Assembly: GCA_005879795.1 (NCBI GenBank)
Contig: VBKJ01000129.1
Span: 1,931 to 65,930, forward strand
Length of the DNA: 64,000 nucleotides
DNA from: Deltaproteobacteria bacterium
GTDB taxonomy: Bacteria; Desulfobacterota; Binatia; DP-6
Direction: 5' to 3'
Position numbers and translations under genes: made by a program. Shown piece after piece: positions 5,188-47,474 of the stretch; within the stretch, counting starts at the first letter, position 1, and each line of letters begins with the position of its first letter. Below the pieces are notes generated by a model that worked only from the letters and a program-made list of their open reading frames with translations, was not told the origin of the DNA and searched no databases.

Positions 5188-6203
5188 CGCGCCGCCGCCA
5201 GCGCGTCGGCGATCTCGCGCGGCACGTGGTCGCGCACCGCCTTGGCCGCCACCTTGACCGCGTTCGCGACGGCGCGCGCGCCCGAGCGCCCGCGGCACTT
5301 GATGAAGACGTGCTCGAAGCCCAGGATCGGCGAGCCGCCGTACTGCGTGTAGTCGGTGAGCGCCCGCGCGCGCTCGCTGCCGCGCGAGAGGAGGCGGAGG
5401 CCGAGCCGCCACGCCACCCGCCGTTCGCCGGCCCGGCCGGTGACGTCGTAGAGCACCTCGGAGACGCCCTCGATGAGCTTCAAGGCGACGTTGCCGAGCA
5501 GGCCCTCGCACACGATCACGTCGGCGCGCCCACGCACCAGGTCGTTGCCCTCGACGTTGCCGACGAAGTTGACCACCGGGAGCTGGCGCAGGCGGCGGTG
5601 CGCTTCGACCAGCACCTCGCCTCCCTTCATCTCCTCGCTCCCCATGTTCATGTTGAGGAGGCCGATCGCGGGGCTCGCGACCTTGGAGACGCGGCGCGCG
5701 TAGACGCTCCCCATGAGCGCGAAGTGCACCAGCTCCTCCGCCTCGCACCGCACCGTGGCGCCCACGTCGAGGAGGAGCGCCAGCGGGTCCTGGCCGCCGT
5801 GCTCGCGCTGGCGCGGGTAGACGCTCGCCAGCGCCGCGCGCCGGACGCCCCGCAGGAGGCGGAAGTGCCTGGCGCAGGCGAGCACGCAGGCGCCGGTGTT
5901 GCCCGCCGAGACGAGGGCCTGGGCCCGCCCCTCGGCGACGGCGCGCACGCCCACCACCAGCGAGGCGTCGCGCCGCTTGACCGCCTGGCGCGGCTCATCG
6001 GCCATGCCGATCGCGTCGGTCGCGTGCAGGATGGCGATGTGCTCGGGGTTGTAGGAGACCCCCTCGAGCACGCTCTGGATGCGGCGCTCGTCGCCCACCA
6101 GCAGGCACTCGATGTCGGTCGCGAGCGAGACCTGGGCGACGCCCTTCACGACCTCGTCCGGCGCGTGGTCGCCGCCCATGGCGTCGACGGCGATGGTGGG
6201 CAC
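5184..6203 (-). CDS. plsX: phosphate acyltransferase PlsX
   Basis: Full-length match to PlsX (MPTIAVDAMGGDHAPDEVVKG...). Confidence 0.9.
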   Translation of the reverse strand: MPTIAVDAMGGDHAPDEVVKGVAQVSLATDIECLLVGDERRIQSVLEGVSYNPEHIAILHATDAIGMADEPRQAVKRRDASLVVGVRAVAEGRAQALVSAGNTGACVLACARHFRLLRGVRRAALASVYPRQREHGGQDPLALLLDVGATVRCEAEELVHFALMGSVYARRVSKVASPAIGLLNMNMGSEEMKGGEVLVEAHRRLRQLPVVNFVGNVEGNDLVRGRADVIVCEGLLGNVALKLIEGVSEVLYDVTGRAGERRVAWRLGLRLLSRGSERARALTDYTQYGGSPILGFEHVFIKCRGRSGARAVANAVKVAAKAVRDHVPREIADALAAAR

Positions 6204-34367: not shown

Positions 34368-34604
34368 ATGAGCACGAGAGCGAAGCTGTTCTGGAACGGA
34401 CGCAGCCAGGCGGTCAGGCTGCCGAAGGAGTTCCGCTTCAGCGGCGACGAGGTCCTCATCCGCCGGGCGAACGACAAGGTGATCCTCGAGCCCGTTCACA
34501 AGGGCTGGGACGATACCTTCTGGGCCTGCTTCGGTAAGCTCTCGGACGACGTCGAGCGGACCGAGTTCGTGGCGAGCGAGCGCCGCGAGGATGCCTTCCC
34601 CTGA
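34368..34604 (+). CDS. vapB: VapB antitoxin (AbrB/SpoVT-MazE fold)
   Basis: 78 aa with a swapped-hairpin N-terminus (AKLFWNGRSQAVRLPKEFRF); overlaps vapC. Confidence 0.8.
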   Translation: MSTRAKLFWNGRSQAVRLPKEFRFSGDEVLIRRANDKVILEPVHKGWDDTFWACFGKLSDDVERTEFVASERREDAFP

Positions 34605-35002
34605 GGTACCTGCTCGACACCAACATCTGCATCTACGCCCTGAAGCGCCGGCCGCCCGAGGTTCTGAGTCGGCTCGAGCGCCTCACGCCCGCCGACGTCG
34701 CCGTGAGCGCCGTGACCGCGGCCGAGCTCAGGTTCGGGGCGAGCAAGAGCTCCGCTCCGGAGCGGAATCATCGCGTGCTCGACGTCTTCCTCGGGCACAT
34801 CAACGTGCTCGCCTTCGACGTCGATGCCGCGACGAGCTATGGACGGGTGCGCGCCCATCTCGAGCGACGGGGGCGTCCGATCGGCGCGATGGACACGCTG
34901 ATCGCCGCCCACGCGCTCTCCCTCGGGGCGACGCTCGTCTCGAACAACGTCCGTGAGTTCAAACGGGTCCCGAGATTGCGGTGCGAGAACTGGGTCAGTT
35001 AG
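34601..35002 (+). CDS. vapC: VapC PIN-domain toxin (apparent CTG start)
   Basis: [13 protein letters not shown]...TAAEL...[13 protein letters not shown] are the PIN acidic residues; no in-frame ATG/GTG/TTG upstream of the catalytic Asp; CTG at 34601 overlaps the vapB TGA. Confidence 0.7.
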
Positions 35003-37544: not shown

Positions 37545-38105
37545 TCACAGGAGCTCCCGGAGACGCCGCTGGAGCTGGCGGCGCGCGTAGTGGAGACGGC
37601 TCATCACCGTCCCCTTGGGACACTCGAGAACCTGGCTGATCTCCGCGTAGGAGAGCCCCTCCAACTCGCGCAGGAGTATGACCGCTCGGTGATCGGGGGT
37701 CAAATCTTGGATGGCCGCGCGCACCCGGCGGGCGATCTCGGCATCGCGCGCCCGCGCGAAGGGCTCGTCAGGGTGGGGGCCGTCGGCGCGGGCCGACGGG
37801 GCGTCCTCCTCGGCGTCGAGGCCGATCTGCGGCCCCTTGGCAGCTCGCCGCTGGTGGTCCACGCACAGGTTGTAGGCGATGCGGTACACCCAGGTGTAGA
37901 AGGCGGCGTCTCCCTTGAAGCGGTCGAGGCTCTGGTAGGCTTTCGTGAACGTTTCCTGCACGATGTCGAGGGCGTCTTCGCGGCTGCGCAGCATGCCGAG
38001 CGCCAGCGCGGCGATCTTGCGCTGGTAGCGCTCGACCAGCTCGCGGAAGGCGTCGTGGTCACCCGTCCGCGCGCGCTGGACGAGCTCCCAGTCGCTAGGA
38101 GCCAC
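37545..38105 (-). CDS. ECF (sigma-24-type) RNA polymerase sigma factor
   Basis: Sigma-70 regions 2 and 4 (DIVQETFTKAY...; LSYAEISQVLECPKGTVMSRLHYAR). Confidence 0.9.
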   Translation of the reverse strand: MAPSDWELVQRARTGDHDAFRELVERYQRKIAALALGMLRSREDALDIVQETFTKAYQSLDRFKGDAAFYTWVYRIAYNLCVDHQRRAAKGPQIGLDAEEDAPSARADGPHPDEPFARARDAEIARRVRAAIQDLTPDHRAVILLRELEGLSYAEISQVLECPKGTVMSRLHYARRQLQRRLRELL

Positions 38106-38183
38106 GGAACGCTCGTGCCAGATAGGACGGGCCGCCGCCCGGGCTATTCAGCCGCCGGGCGCGGCGGGGCACCGCGGGCGGCG

Positions 38184-40781
38184 TCAATGGGCCTCCGCCC
38201 AGGTGGCGCCGTGGCGCACGTCCACCTCGAGCGGGACCCGCAGAGGGTAGACGTGCTCCATGGCCTCCCGCACGGCCGACTCGACGGCAGCGAGCCGATC
38301 CGCGGGGACCTCCAGCACGAGCTCGTCATGCACTTGGAGGAGCAGGCGGGCCCCGCCCCCCGCGGCTGCGAGGCGACGCCGGACCTCCAGCATGGCGAGC
38401 TTGATCAGGTCGGCGGCCGAGCCCTGGATGGGGGTGTTGGTGGCCGCCCGCTCGGCGAACTGCCGCACGGCGGGGTCGCGGGCCCCGAGCTCGGGGAGGT
38501 AGCGACGCCGCCCGAGGACCGTGGTCACGTAGCCCCGCGCGCGCGCCTCCGCGACGGTCGAGTCGATGAAGGCCCGCACGCCGGGGTAGCGGCCGAGGTA
38601 GCGATCGATGTACGCCGCGGCCTCGGCCTGGGAGACGCCGATCTCGCGCGCCGCCCGCGCCGCCCCCATCCCGTAGACGATGCCGTAGTTCATGACCTTG
38701 GCGAGCCGCCGGCCCTCGGCCGGCGGGCGGTCCGCGAACACCTCGGCGGCCGTGCGCGCGTGGATGTCCTCGCCCGCCGCAAAGGCGTCGATGAGGGCCC
38801 GGTCTCCGGAGAGGTGCGCCAGGACGCGCAGCTCGATCTGCGAGTAGTCCGCCGACACGAGCCGGTGGCCCGGCGCGGCGACGAAGGCCGCGCGGATGCG
38901 GCGCCCTTCCTCGCTGCGGATCGGGATGTTCTGGAGGTTCGGGTCGGAGCTCGAGAGCCGCCCGGTCGCGGCCACGGTCTGGTTGAACGAGGTGTGGAGG
39001 CGGCCGGTCGCGGGATCGACCAAGGCGGGGAGCGCGTCGACGTAGGTCGACTTGAGCTTGGCGAGCGCACGGTACTCGAGGACCTTGGCGGGCAGCGGGT
39101 GCTGCTCGGCGAGGCGGGTGAGCACGTCCACGTCGGTCGAGAGCCCGGTCTTCCCCCGGCGCACGCCGCGGGGCGAGATGCCGAGGCGCTCGAAGAGCAC
39201 CGTGCGGAGCTGTGGCGGCGAGTTGACGTTGAACTCGGAGCCGGCGAGCGCGTAGATCTCCGCCATCAGGCGCCCGAGCGCCGCGCCGAGCTCGGCCGAC
39301 AGCGCCCCGAGCGCCGCGACGTCGATCCGGATGCCGGCCAGCTCCATCTCGGCCAGCACCTCGGCGAGCGGCATCTCGAGCTCGTAGAAGAGCCGCTCCA
39401 TCGCGTGCGCCCGCAGGCGCTCCTCGAGGAGCGGTCTCAGCGCGTGCGCCGCGCCGGCGGCGCGGCAGGCGGCGAGCGTCGGGTCGGCGCCGTCGTCGCG
39501 CCCCACGCCCAAGAGCTCCTCGGCGAGCGCGGCGATCCCGTGCTCGGCGCGCGAGGGATTCAGGCAGTACGAGGCCAGCGCGATGTCGAAGCCGGGGCCC
39601 GCGAGCGCGACGCCGCGGCGGGCGAGCGCCACGCGGAGCGCCTTCAGGTCGGCGCCGAGCTTGGTGACGGCGAGGTCGCCCACGAGCGGGGCGAGCGCCG
39701 CCAGCGCGCCCGGTGCGTCGGGCTCGGCGATCACGACGACCGGGCCGCTCGGCCCCGCGAGCGCGAGCGCCTCGAGCCGGGCACCCACCGGGACGATGGC
39801 AACCGCGCCCGCCGCGGCGAGGGCTCCGAGCGCGGTGCGCACCTCCTCGGGCCGCCGCAGGGTCGTGTGCTCGACCTCCGGCACCGCGCCGCTCGGCGCG
39901 AGCTCGCGCAGGAGCGAGGTGAACTCGAGCTCGGCGAAGAGCGGGCGGAGCTTCTCCGTGTCCGGGCCCTGCCAGCGGAGCCGTTCCAGGTCGAGCGCGA
40001 CGGGCAGGTCACGGCGAATGGTCGCGAGCTGCTTCGAGAGCCGCGCCGTCTCCGCCTCGCGCGCGAGCGCCTCGCGGATCTTCTTCGCGCCGCGGAGGCC
40101 GGTGCGCTCGACCGCGTCCAGGTGGGCGAGGATCTCCTCCACCGGCCCCACCTCCCGCACCAGCGTCGCCGCCGTCTTCTCGCCGATGCCGCGCACGCCC
40201 GGGATGTCGTCGATGGGGTCGCCCATCAGCCCGAGCACGTCGGGCACGAGCGCCGGCTCGACCCCGAAGCGCTCGCGCACCTCGGCCGGGCCGCAGCGGC
40301 GGTCGCGCATGGTGTCGAGCCAGGTGGTCCGCTCGTCGACCAGCTGCATCAGGTCCTTGTCGCCGGTCACGATCACGGTCTCGACGCCGGCCTGGCTCGC
40401 CTGGCGGGCGAGCGTCCCGATCACATCGTCGGCCTCGACCCCGGGCACCTCGACCACCGGGAGGCGGAGCGCCTCGACCACCTTGCGCACGTAGCCCATC
40501 TGCGGGCGGAGCTCGTCGGGCACGGGCGCGCGCGAGGTCTTGTAGCCGGCGTAGAGCTGGTCGCGGAAGGTCTCGCCCGGCAGGTCGAAGACCACCGCCA
40601 GGTACCGCGGCCCCTCCTCGCGCAGGAGCTTGGCGACCATGTTGGTGAAGCCGTAGACGGCGTTGGTCGGGACCCCGCGCGAGGTCCCGAGGCTCGGGAT
40701 CGCGTGGAAGGCGCGATAGACGTACCCGCTGCCGTCGATCAGGTAGAGGCGCGGCCGGAGAGCCGGCGAGGCCGATCCCAT
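38184..40781 (-). CDS. polA: DNA polymerase I
   Basis: 5'-3' exonuclease, 3'-5' exonuclease and polymerase domains (DYSQIELR, QVHDELVLE). Confidence 0.95.
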   Translation of the reverse strand: MGSASPALRPRLYLIDGSGYVYRAFHAIPSLGTSRGVPTNAVYGFTNMVAKLLREEGPRYLAVVFDLPGETFRDQLYAGYKTSRAPVPDELRPQMGYVRKVVEALRLPVVEVPGVEADDVIGTLARQASQAGVETVIVTGDKDLMQLVDERTTWLDTMRDRRCGPAEVRERFGVEPALVPDVLGLMGDPIDDIPGVRGIGEKTAATLVREVGPVEEILAHLDAVERTGLRGAKKIREALAREAETARLSKQLATIRRDLPVALDLERLRWQGPDTEKLRPLFAELEFTSLLRELAPSGAVPEVEHTTLRRPEEVRTALGALAAAGAVAIVPVGARLEALALAGPSGPVVVIAEPDAPGALAALAPLVGDLAVTKLGADLKALRVALARRGVALAGPGFDIALASYCLNPSRAEHGIAALAEELLGVGRDDGADPTLAACRAAGAAHALRPLLEERLRAHAMERLFYELEMPLAEVLAEMELAGIRIDVAALGALSAELGAALGRLMAEIYALAGSEFNVNSPPQLRTVLFERLGISPRGVRRGKTGLSTDVDVLTRLAEQHPLPAKVLEYRALAKLKSTYVDALPALVDPATGRLHTSFNQTVAATGRLSSSDPNLQNIPIRSEEGRRIRAAFVAAPGHRLVSADYSQIELRVLAHLSGDRALIDAFAAGEDIHARTAAEVFADRPPAEGRRLAKVMNYGIVYGMGAARAAREIGVSQAEAAAYIDRYLGRYPGVRAFIDSTVAEARARGYVTTVLGRRRYLPELGARDPAVRQFAERAATNTPIQGSAADLIKLAMLEVRRRLAAAGGGARLLLQVHDELVLEVPADRLAAVESAVREAMEHVYPLRVPLEVDVRHGATWAEAH

Positions 40782-40910
40782 GTGCCGCGCCCGGACGCTA
40801 GCAGAGGGGTCCGGGCGAGTCCAACCAGCACACCGACTTGCAATCGCGCCGGGCCGTCGCTACATACGCCGGTCGAATTTCTCGGCTGCCTCCGGAGTCC
40901 AAGACCGATC

Positions 40911-41658
40911 GATGATCGAGGTCGCGAACCTGAGCAAGCGCTACGGCGAGCTGGCCGCGGTGCGCGACGCCTCGTTCACGGCGCCCGCCGGGCAGATCCT
41001 GGGCTTCCTCGGCCCCAACGGCGCGGGCAAGACCACCACCATGCGCATCATCACCGGCTTCCTGCCCGCCACCAGCGGCACGGTCCGGGTCGAGGGTTTC
41101 GACGTCTTCACCCACTCGAGCGAGGTCCGCCGCCGCATCGGCTACCTGCCCGAGAGCCCGCCCCTCTACAACGACATGACGGTGGCCGGCTACCTGCGCT
41201 TCGTCGCCAGGCTGAAGGGCATGGCGCGCGCCGACCTCGCCGGCGCGCTCGATCGGGTGCTCGAGACCTGCGGCCTCGTGGGCGTGCGCGACCGGCTCCT
41301 CGGCCATCTCTCCAAGGGGTTCCGGCAGCGGGTCGGGCTCGCCCAGGCCCTCATCCACGACCCGCCGGTCCTGATCCTCGATGAGCCCACCCTCGGCCTC
41401 GACCCCAGGCAGATCATCGAGATCCGGAGCCTCATCAAGACGCTCGGCGGCAAGCGCACCGTCGTCCTCTCGACCCACATCCTGCCCGAGGTGTCGCAGG
41501 TCTGTGACAAGGTGGTCATCATCAACGACGGCCGCATCGTGGTCGAGGATCAGCTCGCGAACCTGACCCGCGGGCGGACGCTCGAGGACGTCTTCCTCGA
41601 GGCCATCTCGCGCGACACGGGCGACGGCCCGGGCGCCGCGGCCGCCACGGACGCGTGA
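40911..41658 (+). CDS. ABC transporter ATP-binding protein (GldA-like, ABC-2 type)
   Basis: Walker A GPNGAGKTT; LSKGFRQR signature; Walker B ILDEPT. Confidence 0.85.
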
Positions 41659-42434
41659 GCATGCGCAACGTCCTAACCATCGCCGGGCGGGAGCTGCGCT
41701 CGTACTTCTCCTCGCCGGTCGCCTACGTGCTCCTCGCCGCCTACCTGGCGCTCGCCGGCTACTTCTTCTTCGCGCTCCTCTCCGCCTTCAACCAGACCCT
41801 GCAGATCTACAGCATGATGCGCAACCCGGAGATGCTCACGCGCTTCAACCTGAACCAGATGGTCGTGGTCCCGCTCCTCCACAACATGTCGGTGCTGCTC
41901 ATCTTCATCGTGCCCGCGATCAGCATGCGGATGTTCCCCGAGGAGAAGCGTTCGGGCACCTACGAGCTTCTCCTCACCTCGCCGGTGCGCGTCGGCGAGA
42001 TCGTGCTCGGCAAGTTCCTGGGCGGGCTCGCGCTGGTGCTCCTCATGGTGGCGCTCTCGGGGCTGTTCGGGCTCCTGCTCGTCCGCTACGGCAACCCCGA
42101 GGTGCCGATGATGCTGTCGGGCTACCTCGGCCTCGCGCTCATGGCGACGGTGTTCCTGGCCGTCGGGACGCTCGTCTCGTCGTTCACCGACAACGTGGTC
42201 ATCGCCTACGTGGGCGCCCTCTTCGCGCTCCTCGTCCTCTACACGATCGGCTGGCTCGGCGAGACGACGCAGGGCGCGGCGGGGCGGATCGTGCGCTACG
42301 CCTCGATCACCGAGCACTTCGGCGAGCTCACCAAGGGGATCGTCGACACGAAGGACCTGGTCTACTTCGCCACCCTCCTGCTGATCGGCCTCTTCCTGTC
42401 GCTGCGCTCGGTCGAGTCCGTGCGCTGGAGGTAG
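41655..42434 (+). CDS. ABC-2 family permease (GldF-like)
   Basis: Six-TM permease; start overlaps the ATPase stop. Confidence 0.8.
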   Translation: MSMRNVLTIAGRELRSYFSSPVAYVLLAAYLALAGYFFFALLSAFNQTLQIYSMMRNPEMLTRFNLNQMVVVPLLHNMSVLLIFIVPAISMRMFPEEKRSGTYELLLTSPVRVGEIVLGKFLGGLALVLLMVALSGLFGLLLVRYGNPEVPMMLSGYLGLALMATVFLAVGTLVSSFTDNVVIAYVGALFALLVLYTIGWLGETTQGAAGRIVRYASITEHFGELTKGIVDTKDLVYFATLLLIGLFLSLRSVESVRWR

Positions 42435-42436
42435 CG

Positions 42437-44023
42437 GTGCGCCGCTCGGGCTCGCTCTTCGGCCTCCTCGGCCTCCTCTTTCTCGCCTTCGGCTTCGCGG
42501 GGGCCTTCGTCATCGAGCGGCCCCTGCACGACCCCTACGTCGTGGTGAACCTGATCGCGGGCGCGGGGCTCCTCGTCGCCTACGTGTCCTTCGGGCTCGA
42601 GGAATTCCGCAGCCTCCTCGGCCAGCGCTCGACGCGCTACGGCGCCGGCGCGCTCGTCTACACGCTCCTCTTCGTCCTGCTGGTCGGGGGTGGCAACTAC
42701 ATCTCCGCGCGCCGTCACCATCGCTGGGACCTGACCGAGGCGGGCATCTACACCCTCGCGCCGCAATCGAAGAAGGTGGTCGAGGCCCTCAAGGAGGACC
42801 TCGCCATGACCGGCTTCGTCGAGGGCGGGCAGGACCCGCAGGTCCAGAGCCTGCTCGAGAGCTACCAGTACGCCGCCCCGAGCCACGTGAAGTTCCGGCT
42901 CATCGACCCGGACAAGGAGCCCGCGCTGGTCGAGCAGATGAAGATCACGGCGCTGCGCAGCGTGCATCTCCAGTACGGCAAGGAGTCGTTCGTGGTCGCC
43001 AACCCCACCGAGGAGACGGTCACCAACGGCATCATCCGCGTCTCCGGTACGACGAAGAAGCTCGTCTACTTCGCCGAGGGCGACGGCGAGGCGGACATCG
43101 CGAACCAGGAGGACCCCAAGGGCTACGCCAGCGCGAAGCTCGCCCTCGAGCAGGAGAACTACGAGGTGAAGCCGCTCGTGCTGCCCTCGGCCGAGCAGAT
43201 CCCCGACGACGCGAGCGCGCTCGTGATCGCCGGGATGCAGCGGCCGCTCAGCGAGCACGAGGTGCAGATCCTCGACGCGTACCTGAAGCGCGGCGGGCAC
43301 CTGCTCGCGCTCGTCGGCCCACGCCAGGGCGACGAGCGGGTGCCCAAGCTGCTCGCCGACTGGGGCGCCAAGCTCGGCAACGACATCGTGATCGACCAGG
43401 TGGTGCGTCTCTTCCAGGGCCCCACGCTCGGCGTCCAGCCGATCACGAAGACCTACGGCACGCACCCCATCACGCAGAACTTCCGCGACTACACCGTCTA
43501 CCCGCAGACCCGCACCGTCGAGCCCGACTCGGCCGGCAAGAAGGGCCTCACGGCCACGGCGCTGGTGAAGACGAGCGCGTCGAGCTGGGCGGAGACGAAG
43601 GTCGACCAGGTCTTCAGCCAGAACCCGACCGCGTCGCTCGATCCCGAGGACCGCAAGGGCCCGCTCAGCGTCGCGGTCGCGGTGGAGGCCAAGCTGCACG
43701 ACCTGGGGATCACGCCGCCCCCGGCACCGGAAGGGAAGAAGGCTCCCGAGGAGGCGCGGCTCGTCGTCTTCGGCACGCCCATGTTCGCCAACAACCAGCA
43801 GCTCGCCGAGGCGCGGCTCAACGGCGACCTCTTCCTGAACGCCATCGGCTGGCTCGTCGGCCAGGAGGAGCTGGTTGCGATCCGCAGCCGCACCGTGCGC
43901 GCCTCGCGTGCCGAGCTGACCCGGGACCAGGCCGTGCAGGTCTTCTACCTCTCCGTGCTCATCGTCCCGCAGCTCATGATCGCGACCGGCATCGCCGTGT
44001 GGTGGCGCCGGAAGTCCCGGTGA
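42437..44023 (+). CDS. GldG-like ABC-transport auxiliary protein
   Basis: N- and C-terminal TM segments around a large periplasmic domain; GldG family pattern. Confidence 0.7.
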   Translation: MRRSGSLFGLLGLLFLAFGFAGAFVIERPLHDPYVVVNLIAGAGLLVAYVSFGLEEFRSLLGQRSTRYGAGALVYTLLFVLLVGGGNYISARRHHRWDLTEAGIYTLAPQSKKVVEALKEDLAMTGFVEGGQDPQVQSLLESYQYAAPSHVKFRLIDPDKEPALVEQMKITALRSVHLQYGKESFVVANPTEETVTNGIIRVSGTTKKLVYFAEGDGEADIANQEDPKGYASAKLALEQENYEVKPLVLPSAEQIPDDASALVIAGMQRPLSEHEVQILDAYLKRGGHLLALVGPRQGDERVPKLLADWGAKLGNDIVIDQVVRLFQGPTLGVQPITKTYGTHPITQNFRDYTVYPQTRTVEPDSAGKKGLTATALVKTSASSWAETKVDQVFSQNPTASLDPEDRKGPLSVAVAVEAKLHDLGITPPPAPEGKKAPEEARLVVFGTPMFANNQQLAEARLNGDLFLNAIGWLVGQEELVAIRSRTVRASRAELTRDQAVQVFYLSVLIVPQLMIATGIAVWWRRKSR

Positions 44024-45468
44024 TCCGCCGCATCCTCATCCTCCTGGTCCTGGTCGCCGCGCTCGGCATCTACCTCTACGTCTACGAGCTCCCCGAGGCT
44101 GCGCGCGAGGGGAAGAAGGCGAAGCTGCTCGGCGTCGACAAGGACGCCGTCACCGGCCTCGTCCTCGCCTATCCGGACCGCGAGCTCGAGCTCAGGAAGG
44201 ACGACAAGGGCTGGCGGCTCGTCCGGCCCGCCGAGGCGCCCGCCGACGACACGGTGGTGGGGGGTGTCCTTTCGACGCTCGCCGACGCTGAGGTGCAGAA
44301 GACGCTCGACCAGCTGCCGGCGAACCTGGCCGACTTCGGTCTCGACAAGCCGACCGTCACGGTCAAGCTCACGCTCAAGGACGGCTCGCAGCCGCCGCCC
44401 CTCGTGGTCGGCAAGAACACCGCCATCGGCGCCAAGGCCTACGTGCGCAAGGACGACGAGCCGAAGCTCTACCTCACCACCTCGGCGCTCGGCTACGGCC
44501 TCAACAAGCAGGCCAAGGACCTGCGCGACAAGGCGATCCTCGCCTTCAAGGACGAGGACGTGAGCCGGGTCGAGATCAGGGCGGAGAACGGCGACACCGT
44601 GACGCTCGTCCGCAAGGACAAGGAGTCGTGGACGGTGGAGCCGGGCGACCACCCCGGCGACACGACCGAGGTGCGCTCGTACCTCTCTTCGCTGCGTTCG
44701 ACGCGCGCGGTCGACTTCCCGGACGATCACCCGGACGACCTCGGCAAGTACGGGCTCGCCGCGCCCCGGCTCGCCGTCACGGTGACGACCGGCACGGACG
44801 GCGCCGCGAGCCAGGCGCTCCTGGTCGGAGGCGAGACGACCCAGGGCACGCAGAAGCAGATCTACGCCAAGCGCGGCGACCAGCCGACGGTGTACGCCCT
44901 GGGCGACTGGACGTTCCGCACCCTCGCCAAGCCGCCGAGCCAGTTCCGCGACAAGACCGTGCTCGGCTTCGACCCAACGCGCGTCGGCAAGCTCGCGTTC
45001 GAGCGGAAGGACGGGGGCCCGCTCAGGCTCGCGCGCGGCGAGGGCAAGTGGGCGCTCGAGGGCGCGGAGGGGAAGAAGCCCAAGGACTCAGCGATCGCGA
45101 CCCTCCTGGACGACCTCCGCGACCTCCGCGGCGCCGACATCGCCGCCGAGCCGGCGAAGGACCTGGCCGCCTGGGGGCTCGACCACCCCGACCTCCGCAT
45201 CACCCTCACCGACAAGGAGGGGCAGCCGATCGGCACCGTCCTCGCCGCCAAGCACGAGGGCAAGGCGTACGTCATGCGCGCCGGGAGCGAGACCGTCTTC
45301 GAGGCGCGCGACTACATGTACGCGCGCCTCGACAAGCAGCCGAAGGACCTGGTCGAGGAGCCGGGGGCGGCAGTCGAGGGCGGGACGGCGACCACGACGA
45401 CCGAGCCGCCCCCGCCCGAGCCGGGCGAGGCGGACGAGGGCGACGACGCCGACGACGGCGCCGACTAG
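44020..45468 (+). CDS. DUF4340-domain protein with acidic C-terminal tail
   Basis: GTG overlaps the gldG-like stop; N-terminal TM; tail EPPPPEPGEADEGDDADDGAD. Confidence 0.55.
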   Translation: MIRRILILLVLVAALGIYLYVYELPEAAREGKKAKLLGVDKDAVTGLVLAYPDRELELRKDDKGWRLVRPAEAPADDTVVGGVLSTLADAEVQKTLDQLPANLADFGLDKPTVTVKLTLKDGSQPPPLVVGKNTAIGAKAYVRKDDEPKLYLTTSALGYGLNKQAKDLRDKAILAFKDEDVSRVEIRAENGDTVTLVRKDKESWTVEPGDHPGDTTEVRSYLSSLRSTRAVDFPDDHPDDLGKYGLAAPRLAVTVTTGTDGAASQALLVGGETTQGTQKQIYAKRGDQPTVYALGDWTFRTLAKPPSQFRDKTVLGFDPTRVGKLAFERKDGGPLRLARGEGKWALEGAEGKKPKDSAIATLLDDLRDLRGADIAAEPAKDLAAWGLDHPDLRITLTDKEGQPIGTVLAAKHEGKAYVMRAGSETVFEARDYMYARLDKQPKDLVEEPGAAVEGGTATTTTEPPPPEPGEADEGDDADDGAD

Positions 45469-45508
45469 CCGGGCGGTCTCGAACAGCTCTTCAGCGCCGG
45501 CCCCCTGC

Positions 45509-46474
45509 CTACAGCTCTCGAAGCGCGGCGAGCAGCGCGTCGATCTCCGCGTCCGTCCCCACCGTGATGCGGAGCGCGTCGTGCGCGCCCGGCACGGCGA
45601 AGTGGCGGACGAGGATATCACGCGCCGCCAGCGCGCGGGCGACCGGGCCCAGGTCCACTCCCGGTCGCCGCGCGAAGACGAAGTTCGCCTCGGACGGCGG
45701 CACGCGGAAGCCCAGGCGCGCGAGCCCCGTGCTGAGCCGCGCGCGCGTCGCCTTGATGCGGGCGATGTTGGCCCGCATCGCCGGGAGGTCGCCGAGCGCC
45801 GCCTCGCCCGCCGCCTGCGAGAGGCGGCTCAGGTTGTACGAGTCCTTCACGGTGCGCAGCCCGGCCAGCAGCTCCGGGTGGCCGAAGGCGAGCCCGACCC
45901 GCAGCCCGGCCAGCGAGAAGGACTTGGAGAGCGTGCGCAGCACGAGCACGTTCGCGAGCCGGCCGACGAGCCCGAGCGCGTGCTCGCGGGCGAAGTCGAC
46001 GTACGCCTCGTCGACGACGAGGATGCCGGGCAGCGCGCGCGCCAGCGCCTCGACCGCGGCGACCGCCACCAGCGTCCCCGAGGGGGAGTTCGGGTTGCAG
46101 AGGAAGGTGACACGCGCGCGCGCGGCGGCGAGCGCGGGCGGGAGCGAGAAGTCCTCCGGCCAGGGTACGCGCACCGCCTCGCCCCCCTGCACGGCGACCA
46201 GCGTGCCGTAGAGGCTGTAGGTTGGCACCGGGAACGCGACGCGCTCACCCGGATCGATGGTCGCGCGCAGGAGGAGGGCGAGCAGCTCGTCCGAGCCGTT
46301 GCCGGCCAGGATGTGGTCGGCCGGCACGCCGTACACCTCCGCCGCCCGCGTGCGCAGCGCGCGCGCCTCGGGGTCGGGGTAGAGGCGGACGGTCGCGTTC
46401 GCCTCCCGCCCGAGCGTCTCGAGCACGCGCGGCGAGGGCGGGTACGGGTTCTCGTTGGTGTTGAGCTTGATCAC
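45509..46474 (-). CDS. hisC: histidinol-phosphate aminotransferase (coding region probably extends to a CTG at ~46561)
   Basis: KLNTNENPYPPSP...; PLP lysine in TLSKSF; the conserved N-terminal LRPAVRSAAPYVPGE segment lies in frame upstream of the first GTG. Confidence 0.85.
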   Translation of the reverse strand: MIKLNTNENPYPPSPRVLETLGREANATVRLYPDPEARALRTRAAEVYGVPADHILAGNGSDELLALLLRATIDPGERVAFPVPTYSLYGTLVAVQGGEAVRVPWPEDFSLPPALAAARARVTFLCNPNSPSGTLVAVAAVEALARALPGILVVDEAYVDFAREHALGLVGRLANVLVLRTLSKSFSLAGLRVGLAFGHPELLAGLRTVKDSYNLSRLSQAAGEAALGDLPAMRANIARIKATRARLSTGLARLGFRVPPSEANFVFARRPGVDLGPVARALAARDILVRHFAVPGAHDALRITVGTDAEIDALLAALREL

Positions 46475-46562
46475 CCGACGGCCAGGGCCGGGCTGCTCGC
46501 CGGGGACGTAGGGGGCGGCGCTCCGGACGGCCGGTCGGAGCCAGTCGGCGGGGCCGGCCAGG

Positions 46563-47018
46563 CTACTTCACCGCTTTGATCTGGCGCCCTGCCGCCTTCG
46601 TCCGCGCCTCCTGGAGCCGCGGCTCCGGTGACTCGCCGCCCAGATGGCGGTCGACGATCTCGACCGCCTGCCGCTCGCGATCGGGGAGCGCCGTCAGCAC
46701 GTCGACCAGCTTCGTCCAGCGCTCGCGATCGGCGCCGGCGAGCTCGTAGAGGCGCATGGCGCCGTCGACGTCCTTGCGCTTCAGGCACGCGTCGGCGGCG
46801 GCGAGCATGCGCTCGCGCGGGAGCGGCACGCCGCCCAGCTCGCACACGCGCACGGCATCGGGGATGCGGTGCCGCTCGAGCAGCCGCTCCGCGAGCTGCG
46901 TCCAGTCCGCCGCCGTGACCAGCTCCGCGTTGCGCACGAAGAGCCGCATGGCCGCGTCCAGGAACGACCGCTCCAGATAGCGGCGCCCGACGAGCACTTC
47001 GGACTCACTGGCAGGCAT
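46563..47018 (-). CDS. hypothetical protein
   Basis: 151-aa ORF with ordinary composition; no homology recognised. Confidence 0.35.
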   Translation of the reverse strand: MPASESEVLVGRRYLERSFLDAAMRLFVRNAELVTAADWTQLAERLLERHRIPDAVRVCELGGVPLPRERMLAAADACLKRKDVDGAMRLYELAGADRERWTKLVDVLTALPDRERQAVEIVDRHLGGESPEPRLQEARTKAAGRQIKAVK

Positions 47019-47216
47019 CGATGGGCAGTCTCCTCAGCTCCAAAAACCAGCACTCCGCCACCGAAACAGCTTAACCGACGCTCCCCGGCCATTGCAACCG
47101 GCGCGGCGCCCGACGACCACAAAGCACCTGCATGATCCGAGGGTTGCAGGGGCGACCCGGTGCACGCCGCCCCTCAAGAACGTCGCCCGCGCTGCCGATA
47201 ACCCCCCCACGACCCG

Positions 47217-47474
47217 ATGCCGACCCGCCTCAACATCACGTACAGCGCCTACCGCGAGCTGGAGAGCATCCCACAGAGCCCGCTGCGCGACATCGGGGAG
47301 GCCATCATCGGGCTCGCCGATGATCCCCACCCACCGGGGTCCTCGCTGCTGAAGGGGATCGGCGGCTGCTACTACATCGCCATCGACGACTACTACATCC
47401 TCTACCACGTCGACGCGGAGGACGGGCTCACGGTGCTCGGCGTCCTCCACGGCCCGTACCACCCGCTGCATTGA
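47217..47474 (+). CDS. RelE/ParE-family toxin-like protein (no adjacent antitoxin seen)
   Basis: 85 aa; the C-terminal YYIAIDDYYILYHVDAEDGLTVLGVLHG resembles the RelE/ParE core. Confidence 0.5.
   Translation: MPTRLNITYSAYRELESIPQSPLRDIGEAIIGLADDPHPPGSSLLKGIGGCYYIAIDDYYILYHVDAEDGLTVLGVLHGPYHPLH

Follow-up and report, generated by a model that had tools for sequence, protein, structure and literature searches.

CTG is permitted as a start codon by genetic code table 11 and is rare. The near-cognate starts of bacteria are CUG, AUU, AUC, and AUA, and the infC gene of Escherichia coli begins at AUU. In programmed +1 frameshifting of the prfB type, a Shine–Dalgarno (SD)-like element is combined with a shifty codon and a stop codon. 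CTG starts occur at a very low frequency in annotated model genomes, in which ATG, GTG, and TTG account for 99.95% of the annotated starts (bioRxiv 10.1101/063800). Coupling of two genes by termination and reinitiation needs overlaps or very short gaps between them (PMC6728339, PMC10666635, PMC12548453). A term search of PMC12548453 and PMC6728339 returned no mention of CUG or CTG. Here we describe a gene that appears to combine a CTG start with such a gap. It lies on the minus strand of a 64,000-nucleotide stretch (the window) of contig VBKJ01000129.1, assembly GCA_005879795.1, from an uncultured soil deltaproteobacterium of the class Binatia, and is predicted to be hisC, encoding the histidinol-phosphate aminotransferase HisC. 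The comparative data make it likely that hisC is translated from the CTG at 46561–46559, which would yield a 350-residue enzyme, (M)AGPADWLRPAVRSAAPYVPGEQ..., with a complete N-terminal arm.

The first canonical start codon in the hisC frame is the GTG at 46474–46472, from which the listing of open reading frames (ORFs) derives a protein of 321 amino acids (46474..45509; the TAG stop is at 45511–45509). Upstream of this GTG the frame is open back to an in-frame TGA at 46570–46568. The 31 sense codons in between encode SSLAGPADWLRPAVRSAAPYVPGEQPGPGRR (AGT AGC CTG GCC GGC CCC GCC GAC TGG CTC CGA CCG GCC GTC CGG AGC GCC GCC CCC TAC GTC CCC GGC GAG CAG CCC GGC CCT GGC CGT CGG, then GTG). None of the 31 is ATG, GTG, or TTG, and the sole near-cognate codon, with one mismatch from ATG, is the CTG. 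The peptide read from this CTG would start with (M)AGPADWLRPAVR and run on to PYVPGEQPGPGR, and initiation at GTG 46474 would give M-IKLNTNENPYPPSPR. The start region has a G+C content of approximately 75%, and over the stop-bounded ORF the values for the three codon positions (GC1/2/3) are 0.78/0.53/0.96.

The leader upstream of the GTG carries the beginning of the enzyme. The NCBIfam equivalog TIGR01141 matches the stop-bounded translation with 319.3 bits (cut-off 276.55), and profile positions 1–348 of 349 align to residues 11–351. The first 21 or so of these positions fall upstream of GTG 46474, with position 1 inside the leader, so that this coverage is reached only if the leader is counted in the protein. 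The best solved relative is the Geobacter HisC (PDB ID: 3hdo; E 9e-79), whose residue 6 is aligned to query residue 8; in the E. coli structure (PDB ID: 1fg3), residue 8 is aligned to query residue 6. The conserved Pro–Tyr of the HisC arm (SAAPYVPGEQ) is present solely in the leader. Tyr20 of the E. coli enzyme would fall on query Tyr18 (APYVPGEQ) if the N-terminal stretch is ungapped. A protein starting at GTG 46474 would lack both the N-terminal arm and this conserved tyrosine. A review of histidine biosynthesis in Corynebacterium glutamicum reports a significant contribution of the HisC arm to the dimer interface and an important role of the conserved Tyr21 in specificity toward histidinol phosphate (PMC3896937). 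An earlier note on this DNA, made from the sequence of the window, had described the open frame, its closing TGA, and a CTG near 46561 as the only initiator-like codon, and had likened the upstream segment to the HisC N-terminus. We confirm these coordinates, and the likeness is borne out by the profile and by both structures, which align from the leader onward.

The relatives of this protein were compared as 115 cluster representatives. The closest proteins (72–98% identity) come from soil and sediment metagenomes and from metagenome-assembled genomes (MAGs) labelled Candidatus Binatia or Binatus. Forty of the 115 are annotated at full length, and 8 of these 40 start exactly at the residue matching the window CTG (for example P0083, MAAPADWLRP; P0097, MTGPADWLR; and P0024, VTCPADWLRP). 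The other 75 are called short and begin at varying internal Val codons of the arm, as (M/V)IKLN, (M/V)PGEQ, or (M/V)RAVAPY. The GTG equivalent to 46474 is the one chosen by gene callers in the closest relatives of the window protein, P0001 and P0005.

We compared the DNA of seven short-called and two full-length representatives, and the junction alignment rests on these loci. Among the matches listed in a scan of genome contigs, only distant relatives were present (at most 58% identity; L001–L080), which are not informative on the junction. CTG stands at the orthologous codon in all seven short-called genes, five codons before the D–W of PADWLRP. It is kept at the same codon in seven distinct lineages with 78–98% HisC identity and in at least nine independent assemblies from different samples (L081, L084, and L085 from ENA; L082 and L088 from JGI; L086 from NCBI; L087 from Logan; and L089, L090, and L091 from ENA, NCBI, and Logan, respectively). 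The more distant orthologues (72–77% identity) have ATG or GTG exactly at the CTG position: L094 starts ATG ACC GGT CCC GCC GAT TGG and L092 starts GTG ACC TGC CCT GCC GAC TGG. No canonical in-frame start is common to all lineages, whereas the CTG is present in 7/7.

The earlier note had left two readings of the leader side by side, CTG initiation or error, and comparison with the relatives supports the former and refutes the latter. If a point error had turned ATG or GTG into CTG, or if an indel near the junction had removed the true start, the CTG would be an artefact of sequencing or assembly. Such errors are a generic possibility, and the region is rich in G+C. The junction is identical in L081, an independent ENA assembly, and the same CTG recurs, amid many substitutions, in the JGI, NCBI, ENA, and Logan assemblies of diverged relatives. 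The divergence is also of the coding type. We regard the chance of an error here as negligible.

The leader diverges in the manner of a coding sequence read in the hisC frame. Over the 28 codons from the CTG to the Val, the seven CTG lineages show 8, 8, and 22 variable sites at the first, second, and third codon positions and no indels; the 28 undisputed hisC codons after the GTG show 5, 10, and 16 in the same lineages. This third-position-dominated variation bears on the rival reading that translation begins at GTG 46474, which would yield the 321-residue HisC without an arm and make the upstream stretch an untranslated relic of a lost start. The GTG is indeed the first canonical start, is the start called in P0001 and P0005, and has an equivalent in 6/7 CTG lineages. 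The leader, however, is under coding-type constraint across lineages down to 78% identity. The GTG itself is no conserved start: L086/L087 have GCG (Ala) and L094 has GTC, at what is an internal position of RRVIKLN. The predicted pairing with 16S rRNA is also weak in front of the GTG, at −4.0 kcal mol−1 versus −8.3 kcal mol−1 for the 20 nt before the CTG; both values were obtained with a generic 16S tail, which may not be that of the host. Finally, the 321-residue form would lack some 21 positions of TIGR01141, including the arm and the tyrosine that is reported to be important in C. glutamicum (PMC3896937). Initiation at the GTG is thus unlikely in our view. The earlier note would have taken close relatives that start at this GTG and lack the upstream segment as evidence against its observation, and this is not what is seen. 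Relatives are annotated from this or other internal GTGs, yet one lineage lacks the GTG altogether (GCG), and the DNA of the relatives keeps the segment in frame and conserved.

The earlier note did not mention that the CTG follows directly on another gene. An upstream, co-directional gene of 151 codons (47018..46563) ends in ATC AAA GCG GTG AAG TAG, and a single base (C 46562) separates this TAG from the CTG. The CTG is part of a conserved module, GGTGAAGTAG(N0–2)CTG, and this arrangement suggests that the mechanism includes translational coupling. The GGTGAAGTAG element is identical in 7/7 lineages, and the spacer after it takes three lengths. The junction reads GGTGAAGTAG-C-CTG (1 nt) in the window, L081, L082, L084, and L085; GGTGAAGTAG-CTG (0 nt) in L086, L087, and L088; and GGTGAAGTAG-CC-CTG (2 nt) in L089, L090, and L091 (the Binatia MAG GCA_035295465.1). 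The hisC frame cannot extend upstream of a spacer of 0, 1, or 2 nt, since indels there would have destroyed it. The residues directly after the CTG are conserved as (A/S/R)(G/A)P(A/G)DW. Taken together, the varying spacer and these conserved residues confine initiation to the CTG or the next two to three codons, which are not initiator codons. On this comparative evidence, the variable spacer pins the predicted start of hisC to the CTG.

The same spacer bears on recoding, which would produce a fusion of the 151-residue protein to HisC, through a +1 frameshift of the window type or through readthrough of the TAG, with no need for a hisC start codon. In the window, a +1 shift at AAG-TAG-C would enter the hisC frame just downstream of the SD-like GGTGA, which is superficially prfB-like, and in L086–L088 the TAG is in frame with hisC. 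The three spacer lengths, however, correspond to three frame relations, and no single recoding event fits the clade. The ATG and GTG orthologues have no abutting partner (L092 has other upstream genes), and the upstream protein never continues into HisC sequence in its 120 listed homologues. A programmed frameshift or readthrough fusion was rejected on these grounds, namely a frame relation that is not conserved and the absence of fusion-length homologues among those listed; its probability is very small.

It is also conceivable that hisC is decaying after the loss of its start, as a pseudogene or a weakly expressed gene, while another aminotransferase covers the step. CUG is a weak initiator, and aminotransferases can be promiscuous. 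The 350-codon frame is nevertheless intact in all lineages, with the strong third-position bias given above for the window. The TIGR01141 score lies above the equivalog cut-off, and lineages with as little as 78% identity still share the CTG and its context. Decay of the gene is therefore highly improbable.

The upstream gene belongs to a family of proteins of 140–152 residues, with 433 homologues restricted to the Binatia-like clade; next to the CTG starts its length is 145–152 residues. The 151-residue protein has no NCBIfam match and only sub-threshold Pfam matches (TPR_14, E 0.01), so it is weakly TPR-like at most, and no Pfam domain was found in the 433 homologues. The gene is syntenic with hisC in L081–L091 and L094, where it is always the one directly before hisC, and the gene maps of P0115 and P0101 show the same synteny. 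The protein has a variable linker and, after it, a C-terminal IKAVK that hardly varies; of the 120 homologues listed, 114 end in (A/V)VK. Among the seven lineages, the last 28 codons vary at all three codon positions (21, 23, and 23 sites), and the last five are nearly invariant even synonymously (ATC AAR GCG GTG AAG TAG). Within them lies GGTGA, which matches UCACC in the standard 3′ tail of 16S rRNA by complementarity and may act as an SD element for hisC. Folding of 141 nt around the junction revealed no special RNA structure (z = 0.39) and gives no support for a specific unfolding element. A scan of 45300–47400 found no promoter or terminator consensus. No tRNA genes were found within the window, and hence no initiator tRNA is encoded there.

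Starts that lie 1–4 nt after a stop are numerous elsewhere in the window, and plsX at 6203 (TAG C GTG) has the same architecture as hisC. Tight juxtaposition of stop and start recurs across the window (for example at starts 6203, 9718, 19514, 42437, and 58922), and the preceding stop is often TAG. The junction types include TAG C GTG, TAG CGCC GTG, TAG CG GTG, and TAG CCC ATG, and many genes have weak SD-like pairing. This close spacing seems to be common to the genome as a whole.

From these observations we propose the following mechanism. Ribosomes that finish the upstream gene, ribosomes recruited by the SD-like GGTGA, or both, would be placed over the CTG. The initiator tRNA charged with formylmethionine (fMet) would then pair with CUG despite a mismatch at the first position, and the tight termination–reinitiation context would make up for the low intrinsic strength of this codon. 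In E. coli, CUG does support initiation, at approximately 1–2% of the level of AUG, and is found as a rare annotated start (bioRxiv 10.1101/063800). The co-directional pair, with a stop-to-start gap of 0–2 nt, has the structure that termination–reinitiation calls for, and translation of hisC may depend on translation of the upstream gene. CTG is found where hisC abuts an upstream stop, and ATG or GTG is found where it does not. In L094 and L092, hisC lies 53 and 120 nt from the preceding gene, and in L092 the preceding genes are different ones, namely 4HBT thioesterases. This correlation rests on few independent events, and it would fit compensation of a weak codon by coupling. Coupling is probably part of CUG initiation at this locus, and we hold this with lower confidence than the CTG start itself.

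Several points weigh against a CTG start. The evidence for it is comparative and comes from uncultured organisms. In E. coli, initiation at CUG is poor (bioRxiv 10.1101/063800), and in mycobacteria the codon is not enriched as a start (PMC4633059). The SD pairing was calculated with a generic 16S tail, as the window does not contain that of the host. The seven CTG lineages form one clade, and the CTG probably goes back to a single inherited change from ATG or GTG; the evidence therefore lies in retention of the CTG and not in repeated origin. The conserved IKAVK terminus of the upstream protein could reflect constraint on the protein. The features of the locus are collected in Table 1.

Table 1. 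Features of the predicted hisC start and its surroundings (positions in the window)
Feature	Position	Strand	Remarks
Proposed full-length hisC coding sequence, histidinol-phosphate aminotransferase	45509..46561	−	CTG start, TAG stop, 350 aa; TIGR01141 coverage includes the leader
CTG, proposed initiation codon, presumably read as fMet	46559..46561	−	only near-cognate codon; conserved in 7/7 lineages
Leader, 28 codons, HisC N-terminal arm AGPADWLRPAVRSAAPYVPGEQPGPGRR including the conserved Pro–Tyr	46475..46558	−	variable sites 8/8/22; TIGR01141
GTG, start picked by ORF finders; read here as internal Val of RRVIKLN	46472..46474	−	not conserved
In-frame TGA closing the hisC frame; inside GTGAAG of the upstream gene	46568..46570	−	
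GGTGA, SD-like; inside the invariant GGTGAAGTAG, 6 nt before the CTG	46568..46572	−	putative SD role
Upstream co-directional gene, 151 aa, lineage-restricted hypothetical protein	46563..47018	−	TAG 46565–46563, C 46562, then the hisC CTG

Further cases in the window were sought by screening of GC3 and by NCBIfam scans of 30 stop-to-stop ORFs with at least 10 codons before the first canonical start. Beyond hisC, vapC was the only ORF found in which the family profile begins upstream of that start. The earlier note had counted a second such case in the window, and vapC, with its PIN N-terminus upstream of the first canonical start, answers to it. The stop-bounded ORF (34538..35002, plus strand) matches NF047863, the tRNA(fMet)-specific endonuclease VapC, a PIN toxin, with E 1.6e-50, and vapB (34369..34604, plus strand) lies directly before it. 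The catalytic LLDTN lies before the first canonical start, GTG 34703, and only two CTGs are available upstream of the catalytic Asp, at 34601–34603 and 34610–34612. The former overlaps the vapB TGA as CTGA, comparable to the classical ATGA overlap, and has a GAGGA 7 nt before it; VapC homologues start M(R/K)YLLDTN in alignment with 34601. Ten near-identical metagenome contigs (L096–L105) keep the CTGA and have TTG at 34610, where the window has CTG. Either vapC, too, is translated from the CTG that overlaps the vapB stop, or a single-nucleotide polymorphism in the window weakens the start of a toxin gene; vapC is thus weaker evidence for a lineage-wide use of CTG. In the gene of an ECF sigma-70 factor (38147..37545, minus strand), the profile alignments begin 3–4 residues before GTG 38105, with ATA and ATC upstream; this was unconvincing as a non-canonical start.

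A broader reading is that CUG is routinely usable as a start at or next to an upstream stop in this Binatia-like lineage, through relaxed discrimination of start codons during reinitiation. Such relaxation might act, for example, through IF3 or through the mode in which ribosomes are reused after termination. There are two candidates (hisC and vapC) among approximately 50 genes of the window, and the 75 of 115 HisC representatives that are called short are in line with this reading. We consider it speculative and rather doubtful. If it is true, standard gene callers systematically truncate or miss a class of coupled genes.

Two other groups of genes were seen near hisC. An ORF of 85 codons (47217–47474, plus strand) is divergent from the pair of hisC and its upstream gene and has a match to the ParE family of toxins (PF05016, E 2.8e-5). 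In L081, L086, L089, and L094, a similar gene for 85–87 residues is called on the opposite strand at the same relative position. At 40780–45468 (plus strand), convergent with hisC, there is a cluster resembling an ABC transporter of the gliding-motility type, which is syntenic in most related loci. It comprises a GldA-like ATPase (TIGR03522), a GldF-like permease (TIGR03518), a GldG-like auxiliary protein (DUF7088/ABC_transp_aux in relatives), and a DUF4340 protein.

Evidence for individual CTG starts has seldom been presented. In this case one is pinned by comparative data alone, in a housekeeping enzyme and across a clade of an uncultured phylum. The switch between ATG or GTG in free-standing genes and CTG in genes that abut a stop offers a natural test case for whether reinitiation relaxes the stringency of start-codon selection. 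There is also a practical side. Of the closest HisC entries in the databases, about two thirds seem to lack 11–31 residues at the N-terminus, as gene callers ignore CTG. With these residues the models lose the arm and the substrate-specificity tyrosine, and predicting structures or expressing the protein in another host from such models would be misleading.

In comparison with known HisC enzymes (TIGR01141; PDB IDs: 3hdo, 1fg3, and 3cq5), the window protein is a full-length match above the equivalog cut-off, and the N-terminal arm with its Pro–Tyr, the NENP motif, and the SKSF motif with its Lys are all present. It is only the start codon and the neighbourhood of the gene that differ, as it is paired with the lineage-specific 151-residue gene and there is no his operon. 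With described non-AUG starts, hisC shares a single near-cognate codon at the orthologous start position, an SD-like element before it, and presumably the initiator tRNA. It differs in that the CTG is conserved clade-wide in a housekeeping enzyme and always stands 0–2 nt after an upstream stop, and an autoregulatory logic of the infC type is not evident for it. Of prfB-type sites, the window has a GGTGA followed by AAG TAG C with hisC in the +1 frame; unlike at such sites, the frame relation is not conserved (spacer of 0, 1, or 2 nt) and there are free-standing orthologues. The pair of hisC and its partner resembles coupled pairs with ATGA or TGATG junctions (Huber et al. 2019, PMC6728339; PMC10666635; PMC12548453): the genes are co-directional, stop and start are 0–2 nt apart, and the upstream gene contains an SD-like motif near its 3′ end. 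These papers describe such coupling for ATG and GTG starts, whereas the hisC pair has CTG and its coupling is predicted from this architecture. CTG starts as such are already known, and what is new here is a clade-wide conserved CTG in a stop-adjacent module and not a new kind of system.

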